A stretch of 58,026 nucleotides of DNA from the NCBI GenBank assembly GCA_934132925.1, contig CAKPAL010000001.1, positions 1 through 58,026 of the forward strand. Reading direction: 5' to 3'. Below are positions 3,554-24,035 of the stretch, piece after piece. Under the pieces are notes generated by a model that did no database searches, was not told the origin of the DNA, and worked only from the letters and a program-made list of their open reading frames with translations. Source of the stretch: an uncultured Bacilli bacterium. GTDB lineage: Bacteria; Bacillota_I; Bacilli_A; RF39; UBA660. The position numbers and the translations under genes were made by a program. How positions within the stretch are numbered: the stretch's first letter is position 1; each line of letters starts with the position of its first letter.

Positions 3554-4225
3554 ATGAATGGTGGTAAATATTTAATAATAGCATTTTTATTAGCTTTGTT
3601 TACTAATATATCTTTAGTTAAAGCAAATTGTACTAATGAGGAAATAGCAAAATTAAAAGATGAGGCTAGTAAGATAAAAGTTACTTATGAACATTTAGGT
3701 AAAGTTGATATGTATGATGAGATTAAGTATAATCTATTTAATATCGAAATTACTAATATACCTGATGATTTTTATATTAAAATATATAATGATATAGTTT
3801 ATAATCCGGTTGATGGTAAAGTTGAGAAAAAACTATCTACTGGTAAATGGGAAATAAAAGTTTATTCAAATAAATGTGAGGAACAAATCGATAAAATTAA
3901 TTTGAAGTTACCAACATTTAATATGTATTCTTTGGATCCTTTATGTGAAGGAATAGATGGTGATGATTTTCCATTATGTGGAAAATATTATGAATCAAGA
4001 GTGAGTTATGCTGACTTTGAAAAAAGAGTGAAATCATATATAGCAACACATCCAAAAAAAAATAATAATGATGTGAATAATGATGATAAAAATATATTTG
4101 AAAATGTTTTAGTTTTTTTGATTAAGTACAAGTATTATTTTGCATCTGGTACTATATTATTAGTGGTATTAATAATATTATTCTTTAGTTGGAAGAAAAG
4201 AAGAAATAGAGGTGTTTTGAAGTGA
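3554..4225 (+). CDS. secreted protein with C-terminal TM anchor and basic tail; function unknown; first gene of the Tad/T4SS locus
   Basis: I prefer the ATG at 3554 (RBS GAGGTGA) over the track GTG at 3545. Signal peptide (...SLVKA), 4 Cys, and a C-terminal hydrophobic helix followed by KKRRNRG. Confidence 0.6.
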   Translation: MNGGKYLIIAFLLALFTNISLVKANCTNEEIAKLKDEASKIKVTYEHLGKVDMYDEIKYNLFNIEITNIPDDFYIKIYNDIVYNPVDGKVEKKLSTGKWEIKVYSNKCEEQIDKINLKLPTFNMYSLDPLCEGIDGDDFPLCGKYYESRVSYADFEKRVKSYIATHPKKNNNDVNNDDKNIFENVLVFLIKYKYYFASGTILLVVLIILFFSWKKRRNRGVLK

Positions 4226-6447: not shown

Positions 6448-6457
6448 GTGATAGAGA

Positions 6458-7327: not shown

Positions 7328-7343
7328 TAAAAAGGAGGAAATT

Positions 7344-8174
7344 ATGAATAACTTAAAAGCTTCGATGAAGAAATTTCTTGGTAACAAGAATACTGTTACC
7401 ATATTGGGGATAGTATTATGTTTAGTAGTACTATATGTTGGTTATAATTATCGTATTAATGCAAGGGTGGAATTGGTGGAAGTTCCTTATGCTACTAAAA
7501 CTATTCAACCAAGAACTTATATTACTCAAGATATGATAGGAACTATGAATGTGCCAAAATCGTTTTTAGTTGGTAGGTATTATAATAATGCTAATGCTAT
7601 TGTTGGTAAATATACTAATTATAATACTATTATAGCAAAGGGAAGTTTATTCTATGCTGATTTGGTTGTATCTAAAGATGAGTTACCTGATTCAGCATTT
7701 GCAGATGTACCAGAAGGGTATACTGTTGTAAACTATCCAGTTAATATTGCTACTACTTATGCTAATTCAATGGCTCCTGGTAGTTATATTAATATTTATT
7801 ATAAGTCACTTGATGATAATGGTAAGATAATGTTTGGTAAGTTTATTAGTAATATTAAGGTTCTTGATGTTAAGGATGCTTCTGGTCAACATGTATTTGA
7901 GAATAGTGAAGAAACTAGAACTCCTGCTTATATGTTATTTGCAGTACCTGAAGAGACACACTTATTATTAAGAAAAGCTTTATATTTGACTAAATATTCT
8001 GTTGAGTTAATATTAGTTCCTAATACTGCTACTTTAACTGATAGTGATAAGGTTAATGTAAGTAGTTCTGATATTGAAAGTTTTATTAATGATAAGACTG
8101 AGTTTGTTGATGTAACTGATTTACCTAATATTAGTGATCAAGTTCAAGAAAAAGACAATACAACAACTGAATAA
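7344..8174 (+). CDS. cpaB: Flp pilus assembly protein CpaB/RcpC-like
   Basis: N-terminal TM followed by a SAF-like segment (VELVEVPYATKTIQPRTYITQDMIG) and an RcpC-like C-terminal half. It sits immediately upstream of the CpaF ATPase. Confidence 0.7.
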   Translation: MNNLKASMKKFLGNKNTVTILGIVLCLVVLYVGYNYRINARVELVEVPYATKTIQPRTYITQDMIGTMNVPKSFLVGRYYNNANAIVGKYTNYNTIIAKGSLFYADLVVSKDELPDSAFADVPEGYTVVNYPVNIATTYANSMAPGSYINIYYKSLDDNGKIMFGKFISNIKVLDVKDASGQHVFENSEETRTPAYMLFAVPEETHLLLRKALYLTKYSVELILVPNTATLTDSDKVNVSSSDIESFINDKTEFVDVTDLPNISDQVQEKDNTTTE

Positions 8175-8204
8175 TTAATATATTAAGAGTAAGGAGGGCA
8201 AAAT

Positions 8205-9542: not shown

Positions 9543-9556
9543 GGGTAGGTGATATA

Positions 9557-10450
9557 ATGGAAATAGTTTTGATAGGAGTTATTATAATATTTATAATATC
9601 TTATCGTACAAAACAAGGTGAATCTGTATATAAGTTTATTTCAGAAACTGCTGTTAATACTTATAGAAAATTGGAACCTTACTCCTTTAAAGTAATGAGA
9701 GATAAAGTAAAAGAACTAGGACTAGAATATACACCTAGACAATACTTATTTCAAATACTAGCTTTTGCTGGATTATCTGGTGGAATAAGTTATCTATACT
9801 TTTATAATATATTTATAAGTGTCGGTTATATCTTAATAGCGGTATCTTTTATACCTTATATAACTTATTTAAGATGTAAAAGACAGTATAGTGAGTATTT
9901 ATTTGAACAAGTACAGGTATATTGTACTAATACGATAATGGAGTTTGCTACTACTGGGGCTTTTGTTAAGTCATTAGAGGGAGTAGTAGAATCAGGTATA
10001 TTGGAAGAACCTTTGGTATCTGATGTTAAGACAATGATAGCTTTATCTTATGAGAAGGGTGATGTCTATGATTCAATTAAGTATATGGATACTAAGTATC
10101 CATACTATATGGTTAAGAATATGCACCAATTATTCTTACAGGTAACTAAAGAGGGTGCTAAGGATACAGAAGAAACTTTTGAGAATATGTTATCTGATAT
10201 TGATATTTTAGTTGAAGGTGTATATAGAGATAGGACAGATAGAGCAGCCTTTCATAAGCAATTTATTACTTTTGGTGTTGCTTTATATGGTATGGTTGCA
10301 CTTATACAACTTTTGATAGGTCAAGAAACTTATATTGCTATGATAGATAATTTATTAATTAGATTATTTGTTCATGGGGTAGTAATAATTAATAGTTGTT
10401 TTCTCTTGAATGGAGAAAAATATTACAACGAGAATGTAGGTGCTGAATAA
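9557..10450 (+). CDS. tadB: TadB-like polytopic membrane protein (T2SSF domain)
   Basis: TM - cytoplasmic helical domain - C-terminal TMs, matching TadB/GspF-type platform architecture. Position follows the ATPase. Confidence 0.65.
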   Translation: MEIVLIGVIIIFIISYRTKQGESVYKFISETAVNTYRKLEPYSFKVMRDKVKELGLEYTPRQYLFQILAFAGLSGGISYLYFYNIFISVGYILIAVSFIPYITYLRCKRQYSEYLFEQVQVYCTNTIMEFATTGAFVKSLEGVVESGILEEPLVSDVKTMIALSYEKGDVYDSIKYMDTKYPYYMVKNMHQLFLQVTKEGAKDTEETFENMLSDIDILVEGVYRDRTDRAAFHKQFITFGVALYGMVALIQLLIGQETYIAMIDNLLIRLFVHGVVIINSCFLLNGEKYYNENVGAE

Positions 10451-11241
10451 TGTATTTAGAGCTTATTATAGTTACAGTTATTGTCTTCTATATATTTATT
10501 GTTAATAAGAAGATAAAGACTTCATTCTTTAGTAGTAATAGTAAACTATGTAATATTTTGAAAGAGAAAGATTATGATTTTCTATTAATTGCTAAATATG
10601 GTGATAGGGTATATGATCCTAATGAAGTATTTATGAAAAGAGTTAGAAATGGTGTTTTAATGGCTATTGGTTTAATATTTGTATTTATTTCTAATATGAG
10701 TTATTTAGCTGTTATTATTGCTTTAGTAATTGGTTATATAACTTTTAAGTATCAATATATCGGATTAAAAAGATGGTATAAAAGTCATTTGAATTATATT
10801 GATTCATTACTTCCATATTATTTGAAGACATTAGAGGTATTAATTCATCATTATACTGTACCAGTAGCTCTTGCTAAGAGTGTTGATGATGCTCCTGAAG
10901 TATTTAAACCAGGGCTTAAGAAAATGCTTAGTAAGATAGAGGCTGGCGATCAATCTATTGATCCTTATATGGATTTTGCTAAGGAGTATCCAGTAAGAGA
11001 TTCAATGAGAATGATGAGACTATTATATAGATTAGGGCTTGGTGAACAAGAAAAGAAGCATCAACAATTAGTATCGTTTTCTAGATCAGTATCTTCTCTT
11101 CAGGCTAAGGCTAGAGAAATGAAATACAAGGCTAGACTTGATACAATGGAAAAGAAAACTTTAGTAATGATGGTTGTTACTGGAGCAGGTTCTTTAATAC
11201 TATTATTGATTTCAATCTTTATGCTGATAACATCAGTATAA
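10450..11241 (+). CDS. tadC: TadC-like polytopic membrane protein (T2SSF domain)
   Basis: Same architecture as the preceding gene. The start overlaps its stop (TAATG). Confidence 0.65.
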   Translation: MYLELIIVTVIVFYIFIVNKKIKTSFFSSNSKLCNILKEKDYDFLLIAKYGDRVYDPNEVFMKRVRNGVLMAIGLIFVFISNMSYLAVIIALVIGYITFKYQYIGLKRWYKSHLNYIDSLLPYYLKTLEVLIHHYTVPVALAKSVDDAPEVFKPGLKKMLSKIEAGDQSIDPYMDFAKEYPVRDSMRMMRLLYRLGLGEQEKKHQQLVSFSRSVSSLQAKAREMKYKARLDTMEKKTLVMMVVTGAGSLILLLISIFMLITSV

Positions 11242-11295
11242 ATTTTTGGAATATATCAAAAAGAATAAAAAAATGTATATAAGAAAGAAGGTGAA

Positions 11296-11454: not shown

Positions 11455-11482
11455 TGATTAAGATTAAAGTGGGTGAAAATTA

Positions 11483-11946: not shown

Positions 11947-12948
11947 ATGGATACAGTAGTAGCAAATAAATATAGTAGTATATTAAATGAACTTAATATA
12001 GAAGTATCTAAAAAAATAGAGGGTGAGTTTGAAGCAAGTGAAATTATTAATACTTTTCAAAATTACTTCTTTAATAAAATGTTTTTAGATATTACTGCAA
12101 TTAAGAATTATAAAGATTTAACTAATTTGCAAAAATTATCAATGGGTATTAATATGGATAAAGTAATACTTCTTTTAGATGCTGAAGATCCTATAAGTGA
12201 TTCTAGTTTCTTTCTATCTAAATTAGTAGGTATGGGAATATATAATTTTACCAAAGATAAGAATAATTTAATGTATCTATATACTAATCCTAATCTTTAT
12301 AGGGATGTTGCTTATTTACAAAATGTCTCATTAAGTGAAGAACATAAGGAGTTATCTGGTAATCAGTCAGTTCAAAAGAGGGTTTTAGGTATTAAAAATG
12401 TTACAGATTCTGCTGGTGCTACTAGTTTGATATTTATGCTTAAAAAAGTATTAAATGAACAATATAATGTTATGGCTTTAGAATTAGATAAGAGAGATTT
12501 TACTTATTTTAATGATAAGAATATGATTAGTATTAGAGAAGCAGAATTGGAAAGTAATATAAATAGATATAATGCGGAAGTATTTTTAGTTGATTTAAAT
12601 AATGTTAAAAAGGAGTCTTCTTGTACTGATGTGTTGTATTTGGTTGAACCTTCTACTTTGAAATTGAATAAGTTAATGACAATTAATCCAAGAATACTTA
12701 ATGAACTTAGAGATAAGAAAGTAGTATTAAATAAGAGTCTTTTATCAGAAGATGATATTGCTGATTTTGAAGCAGAATCAGGAATAAAGGTATTCTTTAA
12801 TATGCCTCCAGTTAATGATAAGAAGGATAATAGCAAGAAATTGTCAAAATTACTTGGTATGCTTGGTTATGTAAAAGTAGTTAGTACTGATGATGAAGAG
12901 GAAGATGAAAAGAAAAAAAGCATTTTTGATTTATTTAGATTTAAATAA
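11947..12948 (+). CDS. tadZ: TadZ/CpaE-like ParA/MinD-fold protein with degenerate P-loop
   Basis: The C-terminal half follows the ParA/MinD strand pattern (RVLGIKNVTDSAGATSLIF...VMALELD...VFLVDLN...VLYLVEPS...VVLNKS). The Walker A position reads KNVTDSAGATS rather than KGGxGKT. A ~145-aa N-terminal domain resembles the TadZ receiver-like domain. Confidence 0.5.
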   Translation: MDTVVANKYSSILNELNIEVSKKIEGEFEASEIINTFQNYFFNKMFLDITAIKNYKDLTNLQKLSMGINMDKVILLLDAEDPISDSSFFLSKLVGMGIYNFTKDKNNLMYLYTNPNLYRDVAYLQNVSLSEEHKELSGNQSVQKRVLGIKNVTDSAGATSLIFMLKKVLNEQYNVMALELDKRDFTYFNDKNMISIREAELESNINRYNAEVFLVDLNNVKKESSCTDVLYLVEPSTLKLNKLMTINPRILNELRDKKVVLNKSLLSEDDIADFEAESGIKVFFNMPPVNDKKDNSKKLSKLLGMLGYVKVVSTDDEEEDEKKKSIFDLFRFK

Positions 12949-13006: not shown

Positions 13007-13016
13007 AGTGTATGAT
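12988..13016 (+). promoter_or_regulatory. sigma-A-type promoter overlapping the terminator
   Basis: TTGACT - 17 nt - TATGAT, 25 nt upstream of the ATG at 13042. Confidence 0.55.
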
Positions 13017-13041
13017 ATATTTAGATTTAAGGAGGGAAATT

Positions 13042-13374
13042 ATGTATTTATTAGCAGGAACAGATATTTGTGGTAATCCTAGCTTAGCACCTTTATGGAA
13101 TATTGTAGGAACAGTAATAAATATTATTTGGATAGGAGTACCTATATTATTAATTATATTAGGGTCTATTGATTTAGGTAAAGCAGTAATTTCAAGTAAA
13201 GAAGATGAAGTTAAGAAAGCTAAAAAATCACTTTTAAATAGACTTATTTATGCTGTACTTGTTTTCTGTGTAGTTTGGATTGTTCAAATAGTAATGGATG
13301 CAATTAGCAAAATTGGTATTGAAGGAACAGATACTACTTCATGGGCAAATTGTTGGAAACAAATAAGATCTTAA
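13042..13374 (+). CDS. VirB2/TrbC-like two-TM hairpin (pilin-like) protein, free-standing copy
   Basis: I prefer the ATG at 13042 (RBS AAGGAGGG) over the track start at 13012. The 110-aa protein has two TM helices flanking a basic loop (KAVISSKEDEVKKAKKSLLNR), with Cys near both termini. It is clearly homologous to the C-terminus of the 14599 ORF. Confidence 0.55.
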   Translation: MYLLAGTDICGNPSLAPLWNIVGTVINIIWIGVPILLIILGSIDLGKAVISSKEDEVKKAKKSLLNRLIYAVLVFCVVWIVQIVMDAISKIGIEGTDTTSWANCWKQIRS

Positions 13375-13387
13375 TTATAAATATTTT

Positions 13388-13414: not shown

Positions 13415-13452
13415 GTTAATTGATGTAAAATAGAAATAATGGAGGTGCAGTA

Positions 13453-13713
13453 ATGGAAAATAACAAATTAGTAGTTAATGGAGAAAATGGTAATAAAATT
13501 ACTTTAAATGTTATAGATATTATAGCAATCAAGGAATTAAATAAAGAATATATTATATATACAATCGAAGGAGATAGTAGTGATAATATATATGCTTCAA
13601 TTTTTGTTGAAGATGAAACTTCATATACTATCAAGACAATAGAAAATGATGATGAATGGGAAATCGTTCAAAATATAATTAATGAGATGAGTTCAAAGCA
13701 AGAGGGGGATTAG
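13453..13713 (+). CDS. DUF1292-family small acidic protein
   Basis: The 86-aa translation (...ITLNVIDIIAIKELNKEYIIYTIEGD...IYASIFVEDETSYTIKTIENDDEWEIVQNIINEM) fits the DUF1292 pattern. Confidence 0.65.
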   Translation: MENNKLVVNGENGNKITLNVIDIIAIKELNKEYIIYTIEGDSSDNIYASIFVEDETSYTIKTIENDDEWEIVQNIINEMSSKQEGD

Positions 13714-13716
13714 GAA

Positions 13717-14454
13717 ATGTATAGTACAGAGCAACTATTAGATATGTTAAACAAAAAGTTAGAAGATTATAAATTGGAAGCTACCGAATTAGAAGAAGCT
13801 GCAGATAAATCAGTTAATCCAAGTGAATATAGAATGACAGTAGAATATATTAAAAATAAATATAAAACTGCTGAAAAAATAAAGTATATAGAAAATGTAA
13901 TATCAAATACTGAAAAAAGAATGAATAATTTGCAAAGTATTGATAATAATATTGGTTCAAATATAAGAGATAAAGCAATAATTAGAAATCTTGGATATAT
14001 GCATAGTGGAAGTCAAGAAAGAATAGCAAGATTAAAAAACAAAACTGGATTAATTCAAGAAAAGCAAAGAAAGTTTGCTGATAAAAAATATAATATAATA
14101 ACAAGGCGAATAGAAAAACAAGCTGAAATATCAGGTGAATTAAAAAAAACTCATATACAAGAACATAATACACAAGAACAAATTGATGATATACCAGATA
14201 AAATAGAAAATTATGAACAAAAATTGGATGACTGGAGATCGTTAGGATTATTTGGATTATTTAGTGGTAAGGAGTTACCAAATTTTGTGAAAAAGACTTT
14301 AGTTTTTGGCTATACTGTTAGTAGTTATGCTAAAAAATCTGTTTTGTGTGCTCGACTATTAAGATTAAAAAGTAAGAAGGCAATTTATGAAGAAATAAAC
14401 AAAAGAGTTCTTTATCGTGAGGCAAATATAATAAATAGTGGAAAAGTAAAATAA
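13717..14454 (+). CDS. coiled-coil protein of unknown function with a hydrophobic C-terminal segment
   Basis: 245 aa, K/E/Q-rich with a heptad-like composition; LGLFGLFSG segment near the C-terminus. It starts 4 nt after the DUF1292 gene. Confidence 0.55.
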   Translation: MYSTEQLLDMLNKKLEDYKLEATELEEAADKSVNPSEYRMTVEYIKNKYKTAEKIKYIENVISNTEKRMNNLQSIDNNIGSNIRDKAIIRNLGYMHSGSQERIARLKNKTGLIQEKQRKFADKKYNIITRRIEKQAEISGELKKTHIQEHNTQEQIDDIPDKIENYEQKLDDWRSLGLFGLFSGKELPNFVKKTLVFGYTVSSYAKKSVLCARLLRLKSKKAIYEEINKRVLYREANIINSGKVK

Positions 14455-14505
14455 TTTTAATACTTTTTATAATATGTATAATTGTTATTGAAGATGATAT
14501 TTAAA

Positions 14506-14535
14506 AGAAATCATAAAAAAATGATTTCTTTTTTA
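14506..14535 (+). terminator. rho-independent terminator (copy 2 of the duplicated hairpin)
   Basis: AGAAATCAT-aaaaaa-ATGATTTCT followed by TTTTT. It differs from the copy at 13388 by one loop base. Confidence 0.7.
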
Positions 14536-14598
14536 CTTTTTGTATGCTATAATTAGGTTATAGTGATTTATTGTGCTTGATTGGAGTGAAAAAGTAAA

Positions 14599-15642
14599 AT
14601 GAGAAAGAAAATATTATTAAGTTTAACTATTATTATATCAATGATTGTGGGTGTTAATAGTGTTATGGCTGCTACTGAACTTACTTGTGTTTACAAGAAA
14701 GGAGTTGCGGTTTTTGGGCAACCTGCTGTTAAAATTGTTCAATATGATGATGGTACTAAAAAAGTATATATAAATAAGAAAGAAAAAGAACCAGATGTTG
14801 ATAGTGAATCATGGCTTTCTGCTTCAAGGGCAAAAGTTACTGAGGAATTGTCATCTTGTCCAAAATATATAAATTATAAAGATGGAACAGTTATTTTTAA
14901 TAAAGAAAAAAAATCTGGCTATACGGAATTAATTAAAGAATCTAATACAATACCAGAAGTTGATAAAACATATTCAAATATTCATGATATACCTGATATA
15001 AAAAATACTACTTGGTTGAAAGAATGTACATACAGAAAAGTTGGTGGAGATGATTATATTTTCTTGTTTTTTAATAATGATAAAATGAAGTTATTTCATG
15101 GTATTTCTGATGTAACCGAAACTGTTGGAAATCATGCTATTGGTATGACATCAAATGATATTAAACTTGATGATTTGCTAAAGACTTATAATAAAAGCAA
15201 TTCTTGTCCGAATGCTGTATATATTAATAGTAAAATATCTTCAGGTTTTACTGCAGCAACTATTACAACTTATTCATTAAAGAATGATAATGGTGCAACA
15301 TTTTTACTTAATAGGACACAAAATGGAGAAAGTACATCTGAAGATCCTGTAGATGATGATTCATGTGATTTATTTGACAAAGATTTAATAGATTTTATTA
15401 ATAAAATAATGCAATGGATAAGAATATTCGTTCCAATTTTATTAATTGGTTTAGGAATATTGGATTTTACAAAGGCAGTTTTTTCAAAGAGTGAAGATGA
15501 TATGAAAAAATCAAGAGAGAAATTTATTAAAAGGGTTATAGCAGCGGTAGCAGTATTTTTGGTTCCGATGTTTGTTAATTTAATTTTAGATTTAGCTAAT
15601 AGTGTATGGAGTTGGATTAATCCAAATACTTGTATTAAATAG
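14599..15642 (+). CDS. secreted two-module ectodomain fused to a C-terminal VirB2/TrbC-like hairpin
   Basis: Signal peptide (...NSVMA). Two ~100-aa modules each carry C...SCP.(Y)IN. The C-terminal ~95 aa (15349-15642) align with the 13042 protein (VPILLIgLG.lDftKAVfSksEDdmKK...). Confidence 0.6.
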   Translation: MRKKILLSLTIIISMIVGVNSVMAATELTCVYKKGVAVFGQPAVKIVQYDDGTKKVYINKKEKEPDVDSESWLSASRAKVTEELSSCPKYINYKDGTVIFNKEKKSGYTELIKESNTIPEVDKTYSNIHDIPDIKNTTWLKECTYRKVGGDDYIFLFFNNDKMKLFHGISDVTETVGNHAIGMTSNDIKLDDLLKTYNKSNSCPNAVYINSKISSGFTAATITTYSLKNDNGATFLLNRTQNGESTSEDPVDDDSCDLFDKDLIDFINKIMQWIRIFVPILLIGLGILDFTKAVFSKSEDDMKKSREKFIKRVIAAVAVFLVPMFVNLILDLANSVWSWINPNTCIK

Positions 15643-15655
15643 GAGGTGAATAATT

Positions 15656-17443
15656 ATGTTTAGTTTGGATATTATGTCTTCAATAAGGGATTCGTTGAGA
15701 GTTTTGATGCTTGAAATATGTAATATTGTATATAGATTGATTTCTTTTTGCTTTTCTATTTTTGAATCGTTGGGAACAGCTGAAATAATAACTAATGATA
15801 AAGTACAAGCAATTTTTAGTAGAGTTAGTTTAATACTTGGCTTATTTATGGTGTTTAGAATTACATTTGCATTTATCGAATATATTATTGATCCAGATGC
15901 TATGTCTGATAAGAAAAAAGGTGCTGGTGCAATTGTAAAAAAGGTAATAATTGTTATTGTTTTGCTTGGAAGCACTTCATCTCTGTTTAAACTTGCTTTT
16001 CAAGCACAGGATATAATTGTAAATAATGATATTGTTTCTAAAGTTATATTTGGAACAAAAAATACTGATAAAGAAAAGTTTGGCTCTGAATTAAGTTATG
16101 AGGTTTTTTCTGCTTTTTATAGAATGAATGATAATGATGTTTCTAGTGAAACATCTATGTATAAAGAATGTAAAGATATAATGGATAATTGGTTAGCAGA
16201 AGATATGAGAGAGAATAACGGAAGTTTGGATTTGGCCTATGCTTGTCTTAATGAAAGAGCAAAGTATGATATTAATGGTGAAACTAAAGAAGAATATATA
16301 ATTGATTTTGATGGTGGCGGTGTTTTGGCATTAATTATAGGAATTATTGTTTTATATGTTATTGTGATATTTACTATTCAAGTTGGTGTTAGAGTTATTC
16401 AATTAGCATATTTACAAATAATCGCTCCTATTCCAATAGTAATGTATTTAACTCCAAAGGGTGATGATACTTTAAAAAAATATGGAACTCAATGTATGAC
16501 TACTTTTGTTGATTTCTTTTTAAGAACTGCAATAATATATTTTGCTGTTATGCTTATTAAAGAGCTTTGGGGAAATGGTAATTTGATTGGTAATGTTTTG
16601 AATGCTAATTTGTCAGCCACTGGATGGCCTGCATTGTATGTGAAGGTTATTATGATATTGGCAATATTAGTATTTGCTAAAAAAGTGCCAGCATTATTGA
16701 AAGAAATTTTCCCATCTCTTGGTGGGGCAGCATCATTTGATTATGGGTTAAGTTTCAAGAAACAGGTTGTAGAACCTTTAAAAGCGGCATATAATAGTCC
16801 TTTGGGATGGGGATTAAAACTGGGAAAAAACATGGCAACTTCTGCTATAACAGAGTATGATAGAAAAAAATATAATTTACCAAAATCTAGAAATAAATGG
16901 CAACAAAAACTTGACAAGTTAATGCCAGGACGTGCAGAGGCTATTAAAAATGTCACCGAAGGTGCAAAAGAGGTTAGAGATATTGATGATAAATGGAATG
17001 ATGGAGTTAAAATTGCTAAAAAATTTACTGCAGCAGGATTTGGTCTTCATGGAAGTGGTCCGAATGGTTGGGATAAAGCATTGGATGGTACAACTAAAAG
17101 AAATTATCAGATTATATTTAATAGTGATGAATTTATAAATTCAAAAATGACTTTAGATAAAGCAAAAAAAGAAATGGAAAGATTGAGAGATGGATTGCTT
17201 CAAGTTCAAAGTGGTGGAACATTTACTTTTGGTGGTGTTACATATAATTCAAGTAATGTAGCTAATTTATCTGATAAATATAATTCTCAAAGTGGCGTTG
17301 TTTCAGGCTTAGAAACAGTTCACAATAGTCTTAGAAAACAATATGCAGATGATGCTGCTACAGAAGATAAATTTAAATTTGTCAAAAATAATCAGGCAAA
17401 CCCTGCTGAACCAAGCCATACTCATACAACTGAAGGTATTTAA
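15656..17443 (+). CDS. VirB6/TrbL-like polytopic T4SS channel protein
   Basis: 595 aa with at least 6 predicted TM segments and a ~200-aa hydrophilic C-terminus. Strong RBS AGGAGGTG. It lies between the pilin-like and VirB3/VirB4 genes. Confidence 0.55.
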   Translation: MFSLDIMSSIRDSLRVLMLEICNIVYRLISFCFSIFESLGTAEIITNDKVQAIFSRVSLILGLFMVFRITFAFIEYIIDPDAMSDKKKGAGAIVKKVIIVIVLLGSTSSLFKLAFQAQDIIVNNDIVSKVIFGTKNTDKEKFGSELSYEVFSAFYRMNDNDVSSETSMYKECKDIMDNWLAEDMRENNGSLDLAYACLNERAKYDINGETKEEYIIDFDGGGVLALIIGIIVLYVIVIFTIQVGVRVIQLAYLQIIAPIPIVMYLTPKGDDTLKKYGTQCMTTFVDFFLRTAIIYFAVMLIKELWGNGNLIGNVLNANLSATGWPALYVKVIMILAILVFAKKVPALLKEIFPSLGGAASFDYGLSFKKQVVEPLKAAYNSPLGWGLKLGKNMATSAITEYDRKKYNLPKSRNKWQQKLDKLMPGRAEAIKNVTEGAKEVRDIDDKWNDGVKIAKKFTAAGFGLHGSGPNGWDKALDGTTKRNYQIIFNSDEFINSKMTLDKAKKEMERLRDGLLQVQSGGTFTFGGVTYNSSNVANLSDKYNSQSGVVSGLETVHNSLRKQYADDAATEDKFKFVKNNQANPAEPSHTHTTEGI

Positions 17444-17467
17444 AAATAAAAAGGAGTGTGATACATA

Positions 17468-17791
17468 GTGAATGGTTATTTAGTACCTGCTAATGCTAAA
17501 AGGGGTACATTGATATTTAATATGTTTAGACCTATTGATTTGATAATGTTTGGTGTAGGTGCTGGTTTATCTTTGTTACTTTTGATGATAGTTCAATCAG
17601 ATAGTACAGTACTTGTATTATTATCTTGTTTACCTGTTGGTATAACTGGGTTATTAGTAGTACCTATACCTAATTATCATAATGTACTTTGCGCATTACA
17701 GAGTGTATTAAGGTTCTATAAAGAAAGAAGAAATTATATATGGAAAGGTTGGTGTTTTTATGACGAGCTTGCAGACAACAGTAAAAAATAA
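17468..17791 (+). CDS. PrgI-family (VirB3-like) small membrane protein
   Basis: 107 aa. N-terminus ...VPANAKRGTLIFNMFRPIDLIMFGVGAG followed by two TM helices, immediately upstream of VirB4. Confidence 0.55.
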   Translation: MNGYLVPANAKRGTLIFNMFRPIDLIMFGVGAGLSLLLLMIVQSDSTVLVLLSCLPVGITGLLVVPIPNYHNVLCALQSVLRFYKERRNYIWKGWCFYDELADNSKK

Positions 17792-18320
17792 TTCTAAATA
17801 TACTGAAGATTGGTTACCTATTAGAAATATATCTAATGGTATGATTGTTTTAGAGAATAAGAAAAAAGTAACGGGTGTTAAGATAAGACCTAGAAATATC
17901 TTTATTCTTGATCAAAGTAGTCAAGATAGTACTTTAATTGCTTTAAAGAACTTCTATAATACTATTGATTTTGAGTTTTGGTTAATTTCTGCTGATCGTC
18001 CTGTTGATTTGAATAATTATTTAGCAAGATTACAACTTTTGTATAATCAGACTTCGAATCCTGCTGTTAGAAAGCTTATTAATCAGGATATAGATAAGGC
18101 TAATGATTTTATGAATAATAATATTACTGATACTGAGTATTATATATTATTTAAGGAAAAAAATGATGATTTAATTCAGAAGAGACTTAGGACTTTAATT
18201 ACAGGCCTTGCTAATTCTGGATTGGAGGCTGTTCAGGTATCTAATGATGATTTAAGAGTTATATTAGATAATTTCCTTAATAGCGGAATGACTACTAATT
18301 TTGGGACGGTGATTGCGTAA
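17760..18320 (+). CDS. VirB4-type ATPase, N-terminal domain as a separate ORF
   Basis: EDWLPIRNISNGMIVLENKKKVTGVKIRPRNIFILDQSSQDS...NFYNTIDFEFWLIS matches the N-terminal region of Gram-positive VirB4 proteins of the ConE, Orf16 and TcpF type. It ends with a TAATG overlap onto the next ORF. Confidence 0.6.
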   Translation: MTSLQTTVKNNSKYTEDWLPIRNISNGMIVLENKKKVTGVKIRPRNIFILDQSSQDSTLIALKNFYNTIDFEFWLISADRPVDLNNYLARLQLLYNQTSNPAVRKLINQDIDKANDFMNNNITDTEYYILFKEKNDDLIQKRLRTLITGLANSGLEAVQVSNDDLRVILDNFLNSGMTTNFGTVIA

Positions 18321-20104
18321 TGAAGTTTAAAAGTGAATTAGCTCCGAAAGGATTACAATTTAATCCATCTGATTTTGTTATTAGTGATAAGTATGCAACT
18401 ATACTTACTGTAATATCTTATCCTAGATTTATTGGACCTGGTTATTTATCTAATTTAACTAATATGTCTGGTGTAAAGGTAGTTATAAAGCATATACCTG
18501 TTCCTTTTTCTGTTCTTGCTAAGATGTTAAATAAAGAGATTTCTGATTTAAGAAGTAGATATCAACAGGAGAAAGATAGAACAATTCAAGAAAGAATAAG
18601 ACAAGATGTTGATTCGTTAGAATATTTTATTCAACAGTTTACTGCATCACAGGCTAAAACTTTTGATTTTCAAATGCATATAATGATTACTGCTAATACA
18701 AGAGAAGAACTTGAAATGAAAAAGGTAAGTATTAAGAATTATATGGATGCTATGGAACTTAGAGCAGTACCTTTGAGATTTGAACAAGAAAGAGTTTTGA
18801 AATCAATACTTCCTATATTTGAGAAACAACCTATTGAGGATAGAATTGGTACTCCAATGCCTTCACCAACTATGGCTGCGATGTATCCGTTTATTTTTGA
18901 TAGTATAAAGGATGATGGTTTATCAACATTACTTGGTGTAGATTTTTCTGGTGGTGTAGTTTTGTTTAATCAGTTTTTATATCAATTAAAGAAAGAGAGT
19001 AACAGAAATAATGCTAATATGATTATATTAGGTACTTCTGGTAGTGGTAAATCTACAGCGGCTAAATTAATACTTCGTAGTCATATTAGAAATGGTTATC
19101 AGATAGTAGCTGTTGATCCTGAGGGTGAAATTAGCGAAATGACCAAGATGTATGGTGGCGATGTCGTTGATTTAGGTAAAGGTGGAGAATATGGTATGGT
19201 AAATCCACTTGAAGTAATAATGGATGCTGATGAGTCTGAAATTAGAAATGGTCTTGGTTATACTGTTTTAAATAAGACTTTACAATCTTTGAAGGCATTT
19301 ATGAAATATTATTCTCCTGATATAGAAGAGGATGTGTTAGCTTTATTTAGTGGTGTTGTTCAAGATACTTATGCTAGATTTGGTATAACATTTACATCTG
19401 ATTTTTCAAAGTTTACTTCTAAAGATTATCCTATCTTTAGTGATGTTTATGTAACTGTAACTAGCAGATTAACATCTATGACAGAGAAGACTCATGAAAG
19501 AGATGTAATGGAAAGACTTGAATTAAAGTTAAGACCATTAGTAAGAGAGCTTCAATATTATTTTAATGGTCATACTTCTATTAATACTGAGAGTTCGTTT
19601 TTGGTATTTAATATTAAAGAACTTATGAATTCTGATGCTAATATTAGAAATGCTTTATTATTTAATATTCTTAAGTTTGCTTGGGGATTATGTTTAAATC
19701 CTAATGTTAATACTGTATTATCTGTTGATGAAGCTCATGTATTATTAGGAGCTAAAAATGAACTTGGTGCAGAGTTTTTAGCACAAGTTCAAAGAAGAGC
19801 TAGAAAGTATAATACTGGAACTATAATTATAACACAACAACCTTCTGATTTTGTTGCTGATGGTATATTGATGCATGGTAAAGCTATATTTGATAATTCT
19901 TCTTATTACTTGGTAATGGGATTGAAGAAGCAAGCAGTAGAAGATTTATCGATGTTAATAGATTTAAATGATAATGAAAAAGAATCAATAAAGAGATTTA
20001 GTCAGGGAGAGGCTTTATTTGTATGTGGTAATAGAAGGATGCAAGTAAATGTTATTGTAACTGAAGAAGAGTTAGAATCGTTTGGTTCTGGTGGTGGTTT
20101 ATAA
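18320..20104 (+). CDS. virB4: VirB4-type T4SS ATPase, central and C-terminal NTPase part
   Basis: Walker A ILGTSGSGKST, DPEGE, NPLE, Walker B SVDEAHVLL and ITQQPSD. Confidence 0.9.
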   Translation: MKFKSELAPKGLQFNPSDFVISDKYATILTVISYPRFIGPGYLSNLTNMSGVKVVIKHIPVPFSVLAKMLNKEISDLRSRYQQEKDRTIQERIRQDVDSLEYFIQQFTASQAKTFDFQMHIMITANTREELEMKKVSIKNYMDAMELRAVPLRFEQERVLKSILPIFEKQPIEDRIGTPMPSPTMAAMYPFIFDSIKDDGLSTLLGVDFSGGVVLFNQFLYQLKKESNRNNANMIILGTSGSGKSTAAKLILRSHIRNGYQIVAVDPEGEISEMTKMYGGDVVDLGKGGEYGMVNPLEVIMDADESEIRNGLGYTVLNKTLQSLKAFMKYYSPDIEEDVLALFSGVVQDTYARFGITFTSDFSKFTSKDYPIFSDVYVTVTSRLTSMTEKTHERDVMERLELKLRPLVRELQYYFNGHTSINTESSFLVFNIKELMNSDANIRNALLFNILKFAWGLCLNPNVNTVLSVDEAHVLLGAKNELGAEFLAQVQRRARKYNTGTIIITQQPSDFVADGILMHGKAIFDNSSYYLVMGLKKQAVEDLSMLIDLNDNEKESIKRFSQGEALFVCGNRRMQVNVIVTEEELESFGSGGGL

Positions 20105-20126
20105 TCACTATTAGGTGGTGAATATT

Positions 20127-20903
20127 ATGAATGAAGAAGAAACAAAAGAAGTAAAAACAAAAACTTTATGGAATATGATGTCATTAAAGACTAAATTAAT
20201 TGTTATAGGAAGCTCTTTAGGTTTCTTTTTCATCGTTATATTTATTTGTGTTATTATTGCTCCACTTATGGAAATTGGGGTAATTGATATTGGTAAAGGT
20301 GGGCCTAATGGTAGTTATCCTCTTGATTATTCTGATATTGGGGAGTCTGCGACTTATTGGTGGCCGATTGGTAGTGCTGATACAAGAAATGTTAAGGGTG
20401 TATTAGTGGCGGATGGCCTGCCAGTTTCTACGACAATATCTTCTTATTTTGGAAATAGAAAAGATCCTTTTACTGGTGTTGCCAGTAATCATAGTGGTAC
20501 TGATATTGCGGCGAATGATGGTAGTGTTGGTACTATTAATATAATTGCCGCTAAAGAAGGAACTGTTATATATCCTGCTGCTGGTGATGTTACTAGTTGT
20601 CCATCTAATTCTAATTTGGATATTTGTGGTGGCGGTTATGGTAATTATGTGATGATAGAACATGGTGATGGTACTATTACTTTATATGGTCATATGGCTG
20701 CTAATTCTATTACTGTTACTGCCGGTAATCCTGTTATGCAGGGACAAGTAATTGGTAAAATGGGTAGTAGTGGTCGTTCTACTGGTTCACATTTACATTT
20801 TGAAGTGAGGGTCAATGGTAGTAGAGTTGATGGGTTAAACTATGTATCGATGAATAATCCTAGACCTGTTATTGATAATAGTTCTGATGATGAGGATATT
20901 TAA
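20127..20903 (+). CDS. membrane-anchored M23 (LytM-type) peptidoglycan endopeptidase
   Basis: I prefer the ATG at 20127 (RBS AGGTGGTG). TM helix, then HSGTDIAA...GNYVMIEHGDG..TLYGHM...GSSGRSTGSHLHFEV. Confidence 0.9.
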   Translation: MNEEETKEVKTKTLWNMMSLKTKLIVIGSSLGFFFIVIFICVIIAPLMEIGVIDIGKGGPNGSYPLDYSDIGESATYWWPIGSADTRNVKGVLVADGLPVSTTISSYFGNRKDPFTGVASNHSGTDIAANDGSVGTINIIAAKEGTVIYPAAGDVTSCPSNSNLDICGGGYGNYVMIEHGDGTITLYGHMAANSITVTAGNPVMQGQVIGKMGSSGRSTGSHLHFEVRVNGSRVDGLNYVSMNNPRPVIDNSSDDEDI

Positions 20904-20913
20904 GGGAGATAAA

Positions 20914-21777
20914 ATGAAGAAAGATGATATTAAAACATTTATTACAATAATTATAATATGTACTTTAATAGTTGGATTGGTTCTAATACTGAATAGAAAG
21001 AGTAATAGTGAAAAATTAGAAGTTGTTAATGATTATAATAGTTTTTTTACTACAACTAATTATGTTAATAATTTTTTAAGTTATTCTAAAGATTCTAGTA
21101 AGTTATATGATGTTATATATAGTAGTTATATAGATGATAATAATATTACTAAAGATAATATTTTTGATTATATTAAATCTTATCAAGGTGATGTATCTAT
21201 TAAAGTTACTGATATGAAATATGTTAAGGTAAAAGATAATTATATTTATTATGTTAAAGGTAAATTATATCAAAGTACTTTTGATAGTGTTGAAGTTATA
21301 GAAGATAATTTTGAGGTAGTAGTGTTAGTGGATATTGATACTTCTTCTTATAGTATATATCCTATAGATGATAATGATTATAAAGATATAATTAATGGTA
21401 TTAAGAAAATTAAAATAGAAAATAATTCTAATAATGTTGTTAAGACATCTAGTTCTATAAGTAAAGAACAAATGTGTGTTGTGTATTTATCTGATTATAT
21501 AGATAAATTAAATAATGATATTAATTCTGCTTATGATGTATTGAGTAATAGTATGAAGAAAAAATATGTATCTTTAGATAATTTTAGATTATATATAAAT
21601 AATAACTTAAATAGAATTACAACTGATGCTGATAAGTGTTCTTTAGAGAAAGTTAAGAATAAGAGAATATATACTGTTTTAGATAAAAATAGTAATAAGT
21701 ATGTGTTTGTTGAAACGAATATTATGAATTATAAAGTTGATTTTTATTTGTATGATAATAGTGGTGAAAATAAATAG
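20914..21777 (+). CDS. membrane-anchored protein; VirB8-like (TcpC/PrgL-type) candidate
   Basis: I prefer the ATG at 20914 (RBS AAGGGAGA) over the track start at 20872. One N-terminal TM plus a ~250-aa extracytoplasmic part that seems to consist of two similar beta-rich halves. The call rests on position and architecture only. Confidence 0.35.
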   Translation: MKKDDIKTFITIIIICTLIVGLVLILNRKSNSEKLEVVNDYNSFFTTTNYVNNFLSYSKDSSKLYDVIYSSYIDDNNITKDNIFDYIKSYQGDVSIKVTDMKYVKVKDNYIYYVKGKLYQSTFDSVEVIEDNFEVVVLVDIDTSSYSIYPIDDNDYKDIINGIKKIKIENNSNNVVKTSSSISKEQMCVVYLSDYIDKLNNDINSAYDVLSNSMKKKYVSLDNFRLYINNNLNRITTDADKCSLEKVKNKRIYTVLDKNSNKYVFVETNIMNYKVDFYLYDNSGENK

Positions 21778-21859: not shown

Positions 21860-21887
21860 AATGTTAGTAATTTGGAGGAAGACAGGT

Positions 21888-24035
21888 ATGAAAATAAAGG
21901 TAGAAAAAAAAGATTTAATTATATTTATAGCATTTTGTGTATTTTTATTATATTTATGTGCAATAGGAGTTCTTAATGCTTCTAGTATAGCAACAGAAGG
22001 TAGGTTTTATGGATTACTTCCATTTAAAGCTTTTACTCCTAGATATATTGGAATGACTTTTTTCTTATTTTTAGCAGCTTTGATTGGTATTTTTATGGCT
22101 GTTAAGTCTTATATTTTTGATCGTGATAAAGGATTTGGTTTTACTATAGGTGGAAAGAAGGAAAAAGGGTATTCTAAATGGGCTACTGATAAAGAATTTA
22201 AAAATGGTCTATCAGTGGTTAATATTCAAGATGAAAAAACAGAGGCTGCTGGTATACCTCTTTATAGTAAAAAAGGTAAGATGTGGGTAGATAATGGTGA
22301 GGACCATTATTTAGTAATGGGTGCTACTGGTAGTGGTAAAACAGTAATAGTAGCAAAACCAATGATTAAGTTACTTGCTAAACATAATGAATCAATGATA
22401 TTAACTGATCCAAAAGGTGAATTGTATGAAGAGACTGCTGAATTGTTAAAATCAGAGGGGTATAATATTATTACTTTAAACTTTAGAGATCCTGGTCATG
22501 GTAATGCCTGGAATCCGATGAGTCTTCCATATCAGTTATATAAGGAAGGTAATACAGATAAGGCAATTGAATTGTTAGATGACTTGGCTTTAAATATTTT
22601 GTATGAGGAAAAAAATAGTGGGGATCCTTTTTGGGAAAAAACTGCTGCTGATTATTTTACGGGGCTTGCTTTAGGTTTGTTTGAGGATGGTACACCAGAA
22701 CAAGTTAATTTAAATAGTTTAAATTTAATGTGTAGTTTAGGTGAAGAAAGATTTGGAGGTCCAAATAATAATTATATTAAAGAGTATTTTAATGGTAAGG
22801 ATCCTTCTAAACCCGCTTATATTAATGCTTCGGGTACAGTGTTTACTGCTGATGAAACTAAACAGGGTATTATAGCAACATTTAAACAAAAAATTAAATT
22901 GTTTTCTTCAAGAGAAAATCTATCAGAAATGTTATCATATAGTGATTTTGATATGAGAAATATTGGTAGAAATAAAACTGCTGTTTTCTTGATTGTTCAA
23001 GATGAAAAGAAGACTCTTCACCCACTTGCTACAATATTTATTAAACAATGTTATGAAACTTTAATTGATGTTGCTCAAGAGAGTGGTGGTAAGTTACCTT
23101 ATAGAACCAATTTTATTCTTGATGAGTTTGCTAATATGCCACCTTTAAAAGATGTTACAACAATGGTTACTGCTGCTAGAAGTAGACTAATTAGATTTAC
23201 ATTTATTATTCAGAACTTTGCACAACTTACACAAGTTTATGGTAAAGAAAATGGGGATACTATTCGTGGTAATTGTAATTTGGTTTACTTAATAAGTAGT
23301 GAAATTGCTGCTTTGGAAGAAATAAGTAAAATGTGTGGAGAAGTTAAATCTAAAGAAAAGGAGAAAACAGCTTCAACACCACTTGTTACAGTGAGCGATC
23401 TTCAAAGACTTAGTAAATTTGAAATTATAGTATTAAGAAGAAGAATGTTTCCTTATAAGACCAGATTTCAAACAGATTTTGAGGTTGATTGGGGTAGAAC
23501 ATATCCAAAAGCGGTACCACCTGTTAGAGAGAAAAGAGAAGTTCAATTATTTGATATAAGAGAATTCGTTAAAGAAAAGAAAAAAGAGAAAATGGAAGCA
23601 ATGGGAACAAATCCATTTACTGGTAGTAATCCATTTGCAGGTGCTAGTCCATTTGGTGCGTCTCCATTTGGAGGAGCAAATCCTTTTATGGGAGTGAATA
23701 GTCCAATGGCTGGTATACCTTTTATGAATGATGATAAAAATGATAATGATGATGGTGGTTTTAATATTGATGATTTAGTTAAAAAAATAGATGCTAAAAT
23801 AGCGGAAATTGAAAAAGAAGAAGAAACTAAAAAGTTAAATGAAATAGAAGAAGTACCAATTTCTGAACCTGTTAAGATGGAAGATAAAACTAATGTTATT
23901 GATGTAGAAGAGACTAATAATACTTCTAATGAAATTGTTAGTGAAAATAAAAATATAGAAGAACCACTTAAGAATATGTATGAAGAGAATACAAATGATG
24001 ATGATTTCTTTGATGATTTCTTTAGTGATGATTAA
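21888..24035 (+). CDS. virD4: VirD4/TraG-type type IV coupling protein
   Basis: I prefer the ATG at 21888 (RBS GGAGGAAG). Two N-terminal TMs, Walker A VMGATGSGKT, DPKGELY, NAWNPM and Walker B FILDEFANM. The low-complexity C-terminal tail has (N/S)PF-G repeats and an acidic end. Confidence 0.9.
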   Translation: MKIKVEKKDLIIFIAFCVFLLYLCAIGVLNASSIATEGRFYGLLPFKAFTPRYIGMTFFLFLAALIGIFMAVKSYIFDRDKGFGFTIGGKKEKGYSKWATDKEFKNGLSVVNIQDEKTEAAGIPLYSKKGKMWVDNGEDHYLVMGATGSGKTVIVAKPMIKLLAKHNESMILTDPKGELYEETAELLKSEGYNIITLNFRDPGHGNAWNPMSLPYQLYKEGNTDKAIELLDDLALNILYEEKNSGDPFWEKTAADYFTGLALGLFEDGTPEQVNLNSLNLMCSLGEERFGGPNNNYIKEYFNGKDPSKPAYINASGTVFTADETKQGIIATFKQKIKLFSSRENLSEMLSYSDFDMRNIGRNKTAVFLIVQDEKKTLHPLATIFIKQCYETLIDVAQESGGKLPYRTNFILDEFANMPPLKDVTTMVTAARSRLIRFTFIIQNFAQLTQVYGKENGDTIRGNCNLVYLISSEIAALEEISKMCGEVKSKEKEKTASTPLVTVSDLQRLSKFEIIVLRRRMFPYKTRFQTDFEVDWGRTYPKAVPPVREKREVQLFDIREFVKEKKKEKMEAMGTNPFTGSNPFAGASPFGASPFGGANPFMGVNSPMAGIPFMNDDKNDNDDGGFNIDDLVKKIDAKIAEIEKEEETKKLNEIEEVPISEPVKMEDKTNVIDVEETNNTSNEIVSENKNIEEPLKNMYEENTNDDDFFDDFFSDD

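Follow-up and report, generated by a model that had tools for sequence, protein, structure and literature searches.

The stretch analysed here, referred to as the window, comprises the 58,026 nucleotides of contig CAKPAL010000001.1 from an uncultured Bacilli bacterium, with about 27% GC and nearly all of its genes on the + strand. From 3545 to 24035 it carries a locus of about 20 kb, in which a gene set resembling a very divergent Tad-type filament module is followed by the genes of a type IV secretion system (T4SS) of the Gram-positive kind. The locus consists of 21 consecutive open reading frames (ORFs) on the + strand, all co-oriented. This run, together with the start/stop overlaps at 4222, 10450 and 18320, had been described in an initial annotation of the DNA and was recovered in the ORF list. 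The motifs cited there (GETGSGKT, LLSEVR, GHNILSTIHA, GTSGSGKST, VDEAH, GATGSGKT and ILDEFANM) were all found in the translations. GC varies between 25 and 32% within the locus and between 23 and 31% elsewhere in the window, and neither edge of the locus shows a sharp break.

The second half of the locus can be assigned with good support to a Gram-positive-type T4SS, since profile matches were obtained for the VirB2-like, VirB6, VirB4, M23 and VirD4 proteins that had been proposed for it (Table 1). VirB4 is divided, in a way that the initial annotation had missed, between two overlapping ORFs, one for the N-terminal domain and one for the ATPase domain, the latter also matching P-loop_TraG and AAA_10. 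The two-ORF form was found in 83 of the 83 loci readable there, and a recent frameshift of VirB4 was rejected for that reason. Since every readable locus keeps the split, it is a fixed arrangement, neither a pseudogene nor a frameshift error. The best family matches of VirB4 and VirB6 are the NCBIfam models of Mycoplasma integrative and conjugative elements (ICEs), including the VirB4 model NF045975 (Mbov_0397 family), yet all scores lie under the curated equivalog cut-offs: 357 bits against 590 for VirB4, 30 against 90 for VirB6, and 12.5 against 40 for a pilin-like protein (Mbov_0395). Judged by these scores, the T4SS proteins of the locus are relatives, not members, of the Mycoplasma ICE families.

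Other parts of the T4SS half vary among relatives. The small VirB2-like family was found in 75 of 86 loci, and at the position of the wall hydrolase the M23 peptidase is replaced in relatives by SpoIID, NlpC-P60, CHAP, VanY or glucosaminidase proteins. The bitopic membrane protein of 301 aa encoded after the hydrolase had been put forward as a VirB8-like candidate. No match to it was found in Pfam, in NCBIfam or, with its family profile, among PDB sequences, so that its role as a VirB8 equivalent is possible and unproven. The tail of the VirD4-type coupling protein (23500–24035) is of low complexity, with [NS]PF-type repeats followed by a long acidic stretch ending in DDFFDDFFSDD.

The first half of the locus is partly supported as a type IV filament module of the Tad/CpaF kind. 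Relatives of its proteins were scanned with Pfam only: about 20 for each of five Tad-half families, 7 members of the CpaB-like family and 10 distant representatives of the TadB-like family. Two of the parts initially listed as a complete Tad set, the secretion ATPase and the CpaB-like protein, are backed by profiles. In NCBIfam, the ATPase gave sub-threshold matches to VirB11 (1.5e-33) and TadA-type (2.1e-31) models, which are not separable there; its nearest solved structure is CpaF (1.7e-20), ahead of VirB11 (1.5e-16) and FlaI. The Q/N/S-rich tail of this ATPase (9230–9542) is of low complexity. In the CpaB-like family, RcpC was matched in 7 of 7 members (best 5.8e-9) and SAF in 3.

The two membrane proteins encoded after the ATPase may be a TadB/TadC-like pair, for which the evidence in favour is indirect: they are paralogues, one of them has a remote match to a plasmid gene in the TadB position, and there is a weak match to the EpsF fold. 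In hhalign, a broadened TadB-like profile aligned with the TadC-like protein at 94% probability (E 1.3e-7, 224 columns), and the TadB-like family aligned at 84.6% (E 6.8e-6) with the gene in the TadB position of the Tad locus on plasmid CP074574.1. Narrow TadB and TadC profiles did not match the single plasmid sequences, and the broadened TadB profile alone succeeded. Being limited to 309 representatives in a set of 1.84 billion proteins, the TadB-like family is narrow. An AlphaFold2 model based on a shallow alignment (predicted local distance difference test, pLDDT, 55) was discarded; with the distant representatives added to the alignment, the TadB-like protein was modelled at pLDDT 80. The lone compact Foldseek match of this model was the cytoplasmic domain of EpsF, the F protein of a type II secretion system, with a template modelling score of 0.61 and a root-mean-square deviation of 3.9 Å, which is not significant (E 5.9). 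Neither window protein has an NCBIfam match, and the family profiles gave no match among PDB sequences.

The protein of 52 aa that follows is pilin-like in size and layout only. Across 31 aligned sequences of its family the start M-K-x-A-x-G is invariant, the G is followed by E in at least 90%, and about 20 hydrophobic residues come next. A similar start, M-[KR]-[DE]-[AS]-x-G, is found in nearly all of the 48 homologues listed for the 148-aa protein, whose gene is frequently duplicated in relatives. A short leader common to a pilin-sized and a minor-pilin-sized protein resembles a set of prepilin-peptidase substrates. At the upstream end, homologues of the 226-aa protein also occupy the first position in metagenome loci. 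The secreted Cys-rich protein, a candidate surface or adhesin component, has positional equivalents in relatives, and its size differs by species (684–1114 aa). The DUF5411 gene lies directly 5' of the CpaB-like gene in relatives, with one ORF between them in locus L119.

Table 1. Features of the locus on contig CAKPAL010000001.1, with the observation on which each assignment is based.
Feature	Position	Strand	Basis
Intergenic region before the first gene, with TGATATAAT, an extended -10-like element	3442..3544	+	Read directly; same sequence, including TGATATAAT, in the close relative L011
First gene, 226-aa protein with signal peptide and C-terminal membrane anchor	3545..4225	+	Translation; no family match
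Secreted Cys-rich protein, 741 aa	4222..6447	+	Signal peptide in translation; no family match
DUF5411 protein with N-terminal transmembrane helix	6458..7327	+	Pfam DUF5411 6.7e-46
CpaB/RcpC-like protein, 276 aa, membrane anchor and SAF/RcpC domain	7344..8174	+	RcpC 0.0067 and TIGR03177 CpaB 1.3e-4, both below cut-offs in the window protein
Secretion ATPase of the CpaF/TadA-VirB11-FlaI clade, C-terminal Q/N/S-rich tail of about 100 aa	8205..9542	+	Pfam T2SSE 2.7e-27
TadB-like polytopic inner-membrane protein, candidate platform protein	9557..10450	+	Paralogy and remote TadB-position match
TadC-like paralogue of the TadB-like protein	10450..11241	+	hhalign against the TadB-like family, 94% probability
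Pilin-like protein, 52 aa, short leader MKEATG, then E and about 20 hydrophobic residues	11296..11454	+	Alignment of 31 sequences
Minor-pilin-like protein, 148 aa, leader MRDSVG/G and hydrophobic helix	11483..11929	+	Leader type as in the 52-aa protein
Cytoplasmic protein p333, 333 aa, bridging gene	11947..12948	+	Retained beside the pilin gene in L011, L043 and L058
VirB2-like (T4SS_pilin) small membrane protein, 120 aa (110 aa by gene callers)	13012..13374	+	Pfam T4SS_pilin 0.002, sub-threshold
Within-species hypervariable cassette: cargo slot, pilin-fusion ectodomain, VirB6	13415..17445	+	blastn of the window against same-species contigs
Variable cargo slot, here a DUF1292 protein (86 aa) and a coiled-coil protein (245 aa)	13453..14454	+	Pfam DUF1292 2e-9
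Surface protein, 347 aa: signal peptide, variable ectodomain, C-terminal VirB2-like T4SS_pilin domain (pilin fusion)	14599..15642	+	Pfam T4SS_pilin 6.3e-7, above cut-off, residues 265-329
VirB6/TrbL-like channel protein with variable C-terminal extension	15656..17443	+	Pfam TrbL_4 1.1e-8 (above cut-off); NCBIfam MMCAP2_0566 family (Mycoplasma ICE) 2.7e-7 (below cut-off)
VirB3-like small membrane protein	17468..17791	+	Weak TcpE match 0.0067; position and size kept in 83 loci
VirB4 N-terminal domain as its own ORF, 186 aa	17760..18320	+	NF045975 positions 98-277, 9.1e-15; Pfam TraC-like on the called gene
VirB4 ATPase domain ORF, 594 aa; Walker A GTSGSGKST, Walker B VDEAH	18320..20104	+	NF045975 positions 294-893, 1.5e-106; CD1110 family 1.3e-50; both below cut-offs
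Predicted cell-wall hydrolase, M23 peptidase, VirB1-equivalent	20115..20903	+	Pfam Peptidase_M23 7.7e-27
Bitopic membrane protein, 301 aa (287 aa by gene callers)	20872..21777	+	Follows the hydrolase in 34 loci
VirD4-type coupling protein, [NS]PF-repeat and acidic C-terminal tail	21861..24035	+	T4SS-DNA_transf 6.5e-52, TrwB_AAD_bind 3.4e-22, TraG-D_C 8.3e-21

The distribution of the locus was examined through VirB4. The exact VirB4 sequence was found in 342 blocks of an assembly collection (pig and human gut), with the same neighbours in 6 of 6 places examined, and at least 555 related stretches were confirmed when each GTDB species was scanned through a single genome. Detailed comparisons were made on the best 80 of these. 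They come from metagenome-assembled genomes (MAGs) labelled Bacilli or Tenericutes, including Firmicutes bacterium CAG:321, Acholeplasma sp. CAG:878 and Candidatus Onthousia, and one is a closed chromosome of 1.52 Mb; a contig of about 1.46 Mb represents the species of the window itself. Such names may correspond to the GTDB order RFN20 or orders next to it. VirB4 identity over the 80 species loci is 73–97%, and the top 120 VirB4 database homologues listed are about 594 aa each (589–596) and all at least 81% identical. In the closest species, VirB4 is 95–97% identical, compared with 89–91% for RNase Y and 87–90% for FtsY. The surface parts in the closest species (L007–L011) show identities of 34–45% for the pilin fusion and 38–62% for VirB6. 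The rny flank is confined to the closest species; elsewhere the T4SS lies in other contexts, for example directly 3' of rplU-rpmA-obg (L036). The nearest plasmid VirB4 reaches at most 30% identity. In four loci with VirB4 74–80% identical and gene order kept (L026, L066, L076 and L081), the MAGs are assigned to Methanobacteriaceae or Muribaculaceae, most likely as a result of binning errors.

The wide distribution, the conservation of VirB4, the shifting contexts and the distant plasmid homologues together rule out a recent ICE, and indicate that a large clade of gut Bacilli has long had the locus fixed chromosomally, with its motors under strong purifying selection. The earlier description of a relaxase-less module that sits between housekeeping genes fits a conserved chromosomal locus present in hundreds of species. 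Scanning covered the main ORFs from 0.3 to 27.9 kb and, with a cut-off of E ≤ 1e-5, the ORFs of 80 aa or more from 27.9 to 58 kb; in agreement with the initial annotation, no relaxase, integrase or transposase was found among them, and the 58-kb contig holds no tRNA. In five relatives, the interval from VirB4 to VirD4 showed no relaxase family, and in three of the five the ORFs that come next after VirD4 showed none either; these regions contain wall hydrolases of varied type, lipoproteins, coiled-coil proteins and one incidental IS110 transposase. An ICE remnant that has lost its relaxase and integrase is largely refuted and deserves next to no weight: its gene set is that of Gram-positive conjugation machines, VirB4 and VirB6 fit Mycoplasma ICE models best, and some relatives have no VirD4 or Tad block nearby, yet the ORFs are all intact, the VirB4 split common to all readable loci speaks against a recent frameshift, VirB4 is better conserved than RNase Y in the closest species, and neither a GC anomaly, nor a tRNA or integrase, nor a plasmid homologue above 30% identity accompanies it. 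From the sequence data, then, the locus is not an ICE.

How the two modules are linked was studied in the 80 species loci, annotated with iterated hidden Markov models, and refers to what adjoins the locus in the sequence covered; 21 of the 80 were uninformative in this respect. No part of the T4SS core (pilin, pilin fusion, VirB6, VirB3, VirB4N and VirB4C) is missing where the sequence extends over it. Immediately upstream of the T4SS, 43 of the 59 informative species have Tad-like genes, in the order bABCfEZ-pP63n4. In a species whose TadB is only 57% identical the whole 21-gene order is kept, including the upstream secreted proteins and DUF5411. When metagenome loci were centred on the ATPase, about 20 continued into the T4SS core. 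Joining of the Tad-like and T4SS genes is therefore the majority state and not an obligatory one: linkage is frequent, and the modules are separable.

A further property of the locus is a cassette of about 4 kb that is hypervariable within the species. In blastn comparisons with same-species contigs, the DNA on either side of it is 94–97% identical. Inside, it is unalignable or about 70% identical in L001/L005, and the 3' end of VirB6 (16951–17446) is unalignable in L002/L006. The cargo slot occurs in three states within the species: the DUF1292 and 245-aa genes, empty, or genes for proteins of 205, 162 and 336 aa. The pilin fusion is 46% identical between same-species contigs whose flanking genes are 96–100% identical, its ectodomain being replaced, and VirB6 ranges from 595 to 731 aa with 44–73% identity. 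In ICEBs1, an extracellular loop of the VirB6 homologue ConG determines the specificity of YddJ-mediated exclusion (10.1101/2021.01.25.428195). Given this parallel, the pilin-fusion/VirB6 cassette might set partner or exclusion specificity.

From these observations, the reading preferred here is that of a domesticated, relaxase-less T4SS of the Gram-positive type, in this species preceded in one gene string by a divergent Tad-like filament module, the whole working as a contact-dependent transfer apparatus. A probability of about 0.5 is given to it. In such an apparatus, a filament of the 52-aa pilin-like and 148-aa minor-pilin-like proteins would be built by the ATPase of the CpaF clade together with the CpaB-like protein and the TadB/TadC-like pair; the upstream secreted proteins may serve as tip or adhesin components. 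The filament would contact another cell, the M23 hydrolase would open the wall, and the envelope channel would consist of VirB6, both VirB2-like proteins, the VirB3-like protein and the two-ORF VirB4; through it, VirD4 would feed cytoplasmic substrates outward into the contacted cell. Candidate substrates are proteins, or chromosomal DNA that would be moved as in mycoplasma chromosomal transfer, where no canonical relaxase is involved; the variable cassette would confer the specificity suggested above. Cooperation of the modules, the direction of transport and the substrate are conjectural, and the idea that the two machines act as one apparatus is neither shown nor refuted.

Several results weigh against this reading, some of them concerning the identity of the filament parts. 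T2SSF was not matched in Pfam by the TadB/TadC-like proteins of the window, by 38 relatives or by the 10 distant representatives. The 52-aa family did not match Flp_Fap and does not have the canonical Flp motif G/xxxxEY, with no E5/Y6, and TadE was not matched by the 148-aa window protein or its relatives. For the p333 family there was no Pfam, NCBIfam or PDB match, and hence no support for the ParA-fold TadZ that the initial annotation had seen in it; hhalign of p333 against the AAA_31 TadZ-like protein of the plasmid and against MinD (uncurated sequence) gave no match either. Five of the seven parts named for the complete Tad set, namely the T2SSF pair, Flp, TadE and TadZ, are accordingly unmatched by their family profiles. 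In agreement with the initial annotation, no prepilin peptidase was found: Pfam gave no Peptidase_A24 among the ORFs scanned in the 58-kb window, and a crude motif scan found no G-x-G-D-x-K membrane ORF in the window or the fetched loci.

Other adverse results concern the linkage. Separate occurrence of the two halves in relatives, which the initial annotation had named as telling against its proposal, is seen in part: adjacency in the same order holds for the 43 species, and the remaining 16 of the 59 have at least 2.4 kb of unrelated genes upstream of the T4SS instead. About 19 of the ATPase-centred metagenome loci have no T4SS core over at least 4 kb downstream; in some, for example, the block ends after two small VirB2-like genes followed by uvrA, or after TadC. 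In L011, the locus of a close relative with VirB4 95% identical and the same trmL/trx and rny flanks, 3545–11929 is cleanly deleted and the T4SS is intact, the thioredoxin gene running straight into the p333 homologue. No VirD4 was found within 10 kb downstream in the clade L024–L028. This clade carries the T4SS core without a Tad block upstream, and its hydrolase is a 752-aa fusion of SpoIID, NlpC/P60 and beta-lactamase domains.

Partial forms of the filament block also occur. L043 keeps the pilin-like, minor-pilin-like and p333 genes without ATPase or platform genes, and L058 is similar, with no pilin-like gene seen. In seven metagenome loci of one lineage (L148, L151, L156, L157, L159, L161 and L169), the CpaB, pilin-like and minor-pilin-like genes are duplicated and the block ends with p333 and two small VirB2-like genes; in L148, which was read in detail, uvrA comes next. 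Tad blocks with this ending indicate that VirB2-like genes can travel with the filament block and not with the T4SS core.

The explanation that competes best with the transfer apparatus is that of two independent machines, neighbours by ancestry only, with the Tad-like filament used for adhesion to mucus, particles or host and the T4SS for an unrelated task. Tad pili are established adhesion organelles, and each module is found in many lineages without the other beside it, with break points that vary (after TadC, p333 or the small pilins); L011, where an intact T4SS does without the Tad block, points the same way. On the other hand, the joint order is kept down to 73% VirB4 identity, and in genomes as small as these (about 1.5 Mb) synteny that lasts so long is probably not neutral. 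In a neighbour-joining tree of VirB4, the Tad-less loci form several separate clades nested among Tad-bearing ones, and the joined form occurs on both sides of the midpoint root, which suggests ancestral linkage followed by repeated loss or relocation. In addition, the bridging genes (pilin-like, minor-pilin-like, p333 and small VirB2-like) travel with either module, and a separate co-location of T4SS and Tad genes exists on the Mycoplasmatota plasmid CP074574.1. Mere adjacency of unrelated machines is thus rather unlikely, while being the alternative to be taken most seriously.

The junction in L011 also bears on how the locus might be transcribed. There, the upstream region with TGATATAAT is fused to the ribosome-binding site of p333 (3235–4807 of L011 against 3442–11946 of the window), so that p333 and the T4SS genes directly follow the putative promoter region, as would fit a single transcription unit. 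The intergenic region before the first gene is probably the promoter of the whole locus. The short gaps between ORFs, which had been taken for terminator/promoter nodes, do exist; a consensus promoter scan showed no enrichment (128 sites seen, 131 expected), and the terminator scan gave no terminator-like site on the + strand. Since the DNA is AT-rich, such consensus scans are uninformative.

A competence-like apparatus, with the Tad-like filament catching DNA for import through the relaxase-less T4SS, is improbable. No relaxase was found in the window or in the relatives' intervals scanned, and genome-reduced organisms may scavenge DNA. The Tad system of Micrococcus luteus reportedly acts in DNA uptake, which offers one precedent. 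Import by the ComB T4SS of Helicobacter pylori offers another (PMC12857230). However, the known uptake T4SSs of the ComB kind work without VirD4 (PMC12857230), so that the full VirD4 of the locus argues against pure uptake, and its repeat-rich acidic tail, read as substrate-recruiting, favours outward recruitment. Surface parts that are hypervariable within a species would also suit cell–cell recognition better than the binding of free DNA.

The transfer apparatus proposed here has published precedents, and the earlier claim that nothing comparable had been described was too strong. Its nearest analogues are the T4SS of Patescibacteria and the pairs of type IV pilus and T4SS in R64 and PAPI-1. 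Cooperation of a type IV filament with a T4SS is established for R64, PAPI-1 and the Ups/Ced systems of Sulfolobales (PMC12857230, PMC12102498). In the IncI plasmid R64 and in PAPI-1 of Pseudomonas aeruginosa, a type IV pilus cluster lies beside VirB4/VirD4 T4SS genes, as here; the R64 pilus helps liquid matings, and the PAPI-1 pilus is essential for mating-pair formation (PMC12857230). Both are Gram-negative and mobile, a conjugative plasmid and a transferable island with a type IVb filament, whereas the present locus is chromosomal, relaxase-less and from a monoderm.

The T4SS of Patescibacteria (e.g., Southlakia epibionticum) is likewise monoderm, MPF-FATA-related, relaxase-less, chromosomal and vertically inherited (PMC12102498, PMC12857230), with VirB1-, B3-, B4-, B6- and D4-like parts and VirB2-like (T4SS_pilin) genes in hosts with reduced genomes. 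Type IV pili and T4SS both matter for cell–cell association in these organisms (PMC12102498, PMC12857230), and the T4SS is essential for epibiotic growth (PMC12857230). VirB2-type subunits are, according to a review, otherwise not found in Gram-positive T4SSs (PMC12857230). Unlike in Patescibacteria, the host here is a wall-bearing member of the Bacillota (Bacilli) with a genome of about 1.5 Mb, VirB4 is split, the filament is of the CpaF/Tad kind and encoded in the same gene string rather than separately, and there are two VirB2-like pilin genes instead of six.

Among Gram-positive and related systems, the Mycoplasma ICEs (ICEA/ICEB) share with the locus the best NCBIfam matches for VirB4 and VirB6 and a faint one for a pilin-like protein (Mbov_0395), and their hosts are related low-GC lineages. 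To our knowledge, they have no Tad module. They are mobile, live in hosts without a cell wall and have no VirB1- or VirB8-like parts; their transfer of ICE and chromosomal DNA is independent of a canonical relaxase (PMC12857230). The Prg/Pcf system of pCF10, Con of ICEBs1, Tcp of pCW3 and Tra of pIP501 have the same minimal set of hydrolase, VirB3-like protein, VirB4, VirB6 and VirD4, but they are mobile, with a relaxase and oriT, surface adhesins instead of a type IV filament, and VirB4 in one polypeptide.

The filament half resembles the Tad/Flp pili of Caulobacter (Cpa), Aggregatibacter (Tad), Bifidobacterium breve and Micrococcus luteus in its CpaF-like ATPase, its CpaB/RcpC-like protein, the pair of paralogous membrane proteins encoded behind the ATPase and, ahead of minor-pilin-like genes, a pilin some 50–60 aa long. 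It differs from them in the leader (MKxAxG followed by E, not G/xxxxEY), in the unmatched T2SSF, Flp_Fap and TadE profiles, and in that no TadZ or TadV was identified. A related layout is that of the best plasmid hit, CP074574.1 (98 kb), from the cultured cold-seep Mycoplasmatota bacterium zrk4, in which a T4SS_pilin fusion and VirB4 lie near a Tad cluster (14155–43885, L087). About 3 kb past VirB4 come SAF/CpaB, an AAA_31 TadZ-like ATPase, CpaF, the gene in the TadB position and a T2SSF protein. Unlike the present locus, it is plasmid-borne and typed as non-mobilizable, the T4SS comes first, identities are about 27–30%, and the Tad parts match standard profiles. No publication on this plasmid was found, nor any paper describing a Tad-T4SS locus in Bacillota. 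What is new is that a known idea is met in Bacillota, where one gene string includes the filament module, VirB4 is split and the surface cassette is polymorphic.

Among monoderms, domesticated T4SSs that have no relaxase but do have VirB2-like pilins have until now been highlighted in Patescibacteria alone (PMC12857230). The locus described here adds a comparable machine, fixed chromosomally in a large group of Bacilli from human and animal guts and in most species joined to a filament module. If the modules cooperate, this would be the first Tad-T4SS composite that we found described for Gram-positive bacteria; it would challenge the view of Gram-positive T4SSs as pilus-less and would suggest that these uncultured organisms have, as a core trait, a contact-dependent way of exchanging DNA, proteins or nutrients. 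Partner specificity could be approached by population genomics through the hypervariable surface cassette. A bolder and unlikely extension is that the fused filament and T4SS form an obligatory interface with other bacteria or conspecifics, which would amount to a second, independent T4SS-dependent lifestyle of the Patescibacteria style, in Bacillota; the cassette would then be a mating-type or exclusion code, and the dependence might help explain the resistance of the clade to cultivation.

The flanks of the locus had been given as trmL and rny. Downstream, rny (RNase Y) does follow directly, with a GH3 glycosidase and FtsY beyond it; upstream are a DUF6568 protein and the SpoU/TrmL-type methylase, and a thioredoxin gene on the - strand, overlooked earlier, intervenes between the latter and the locus. 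The part from 27.9 to 58 kb contains YlxM, a Mur ligase, ribosomal protein S2, EF-Ts, iPGM and a wall-polysaccharide cluster. Amid the wall-polysaccharide genes, 15 kb from the T4SS, 39520–40536 encodes a soluble P-loop protein of 338 aa of the FtsK/SpoIIIE/HerA type (FtsK_SpoIIIE 1.7e-9). A secreted protein of 352 aa (33584–34642), without a Pfam match at 1e-5, has the N-terminus ...GAAGTYAWFTW, which we take to resemble a SipW-type or camelysin-like signal. Two neighbouring small membrane ORFs are convergent, at 36837–37217 (+) and 37283–37831 (-); DUF5684 matched two regions in the stretch 36837–37831, and the one listed lies in the + strand ORF.

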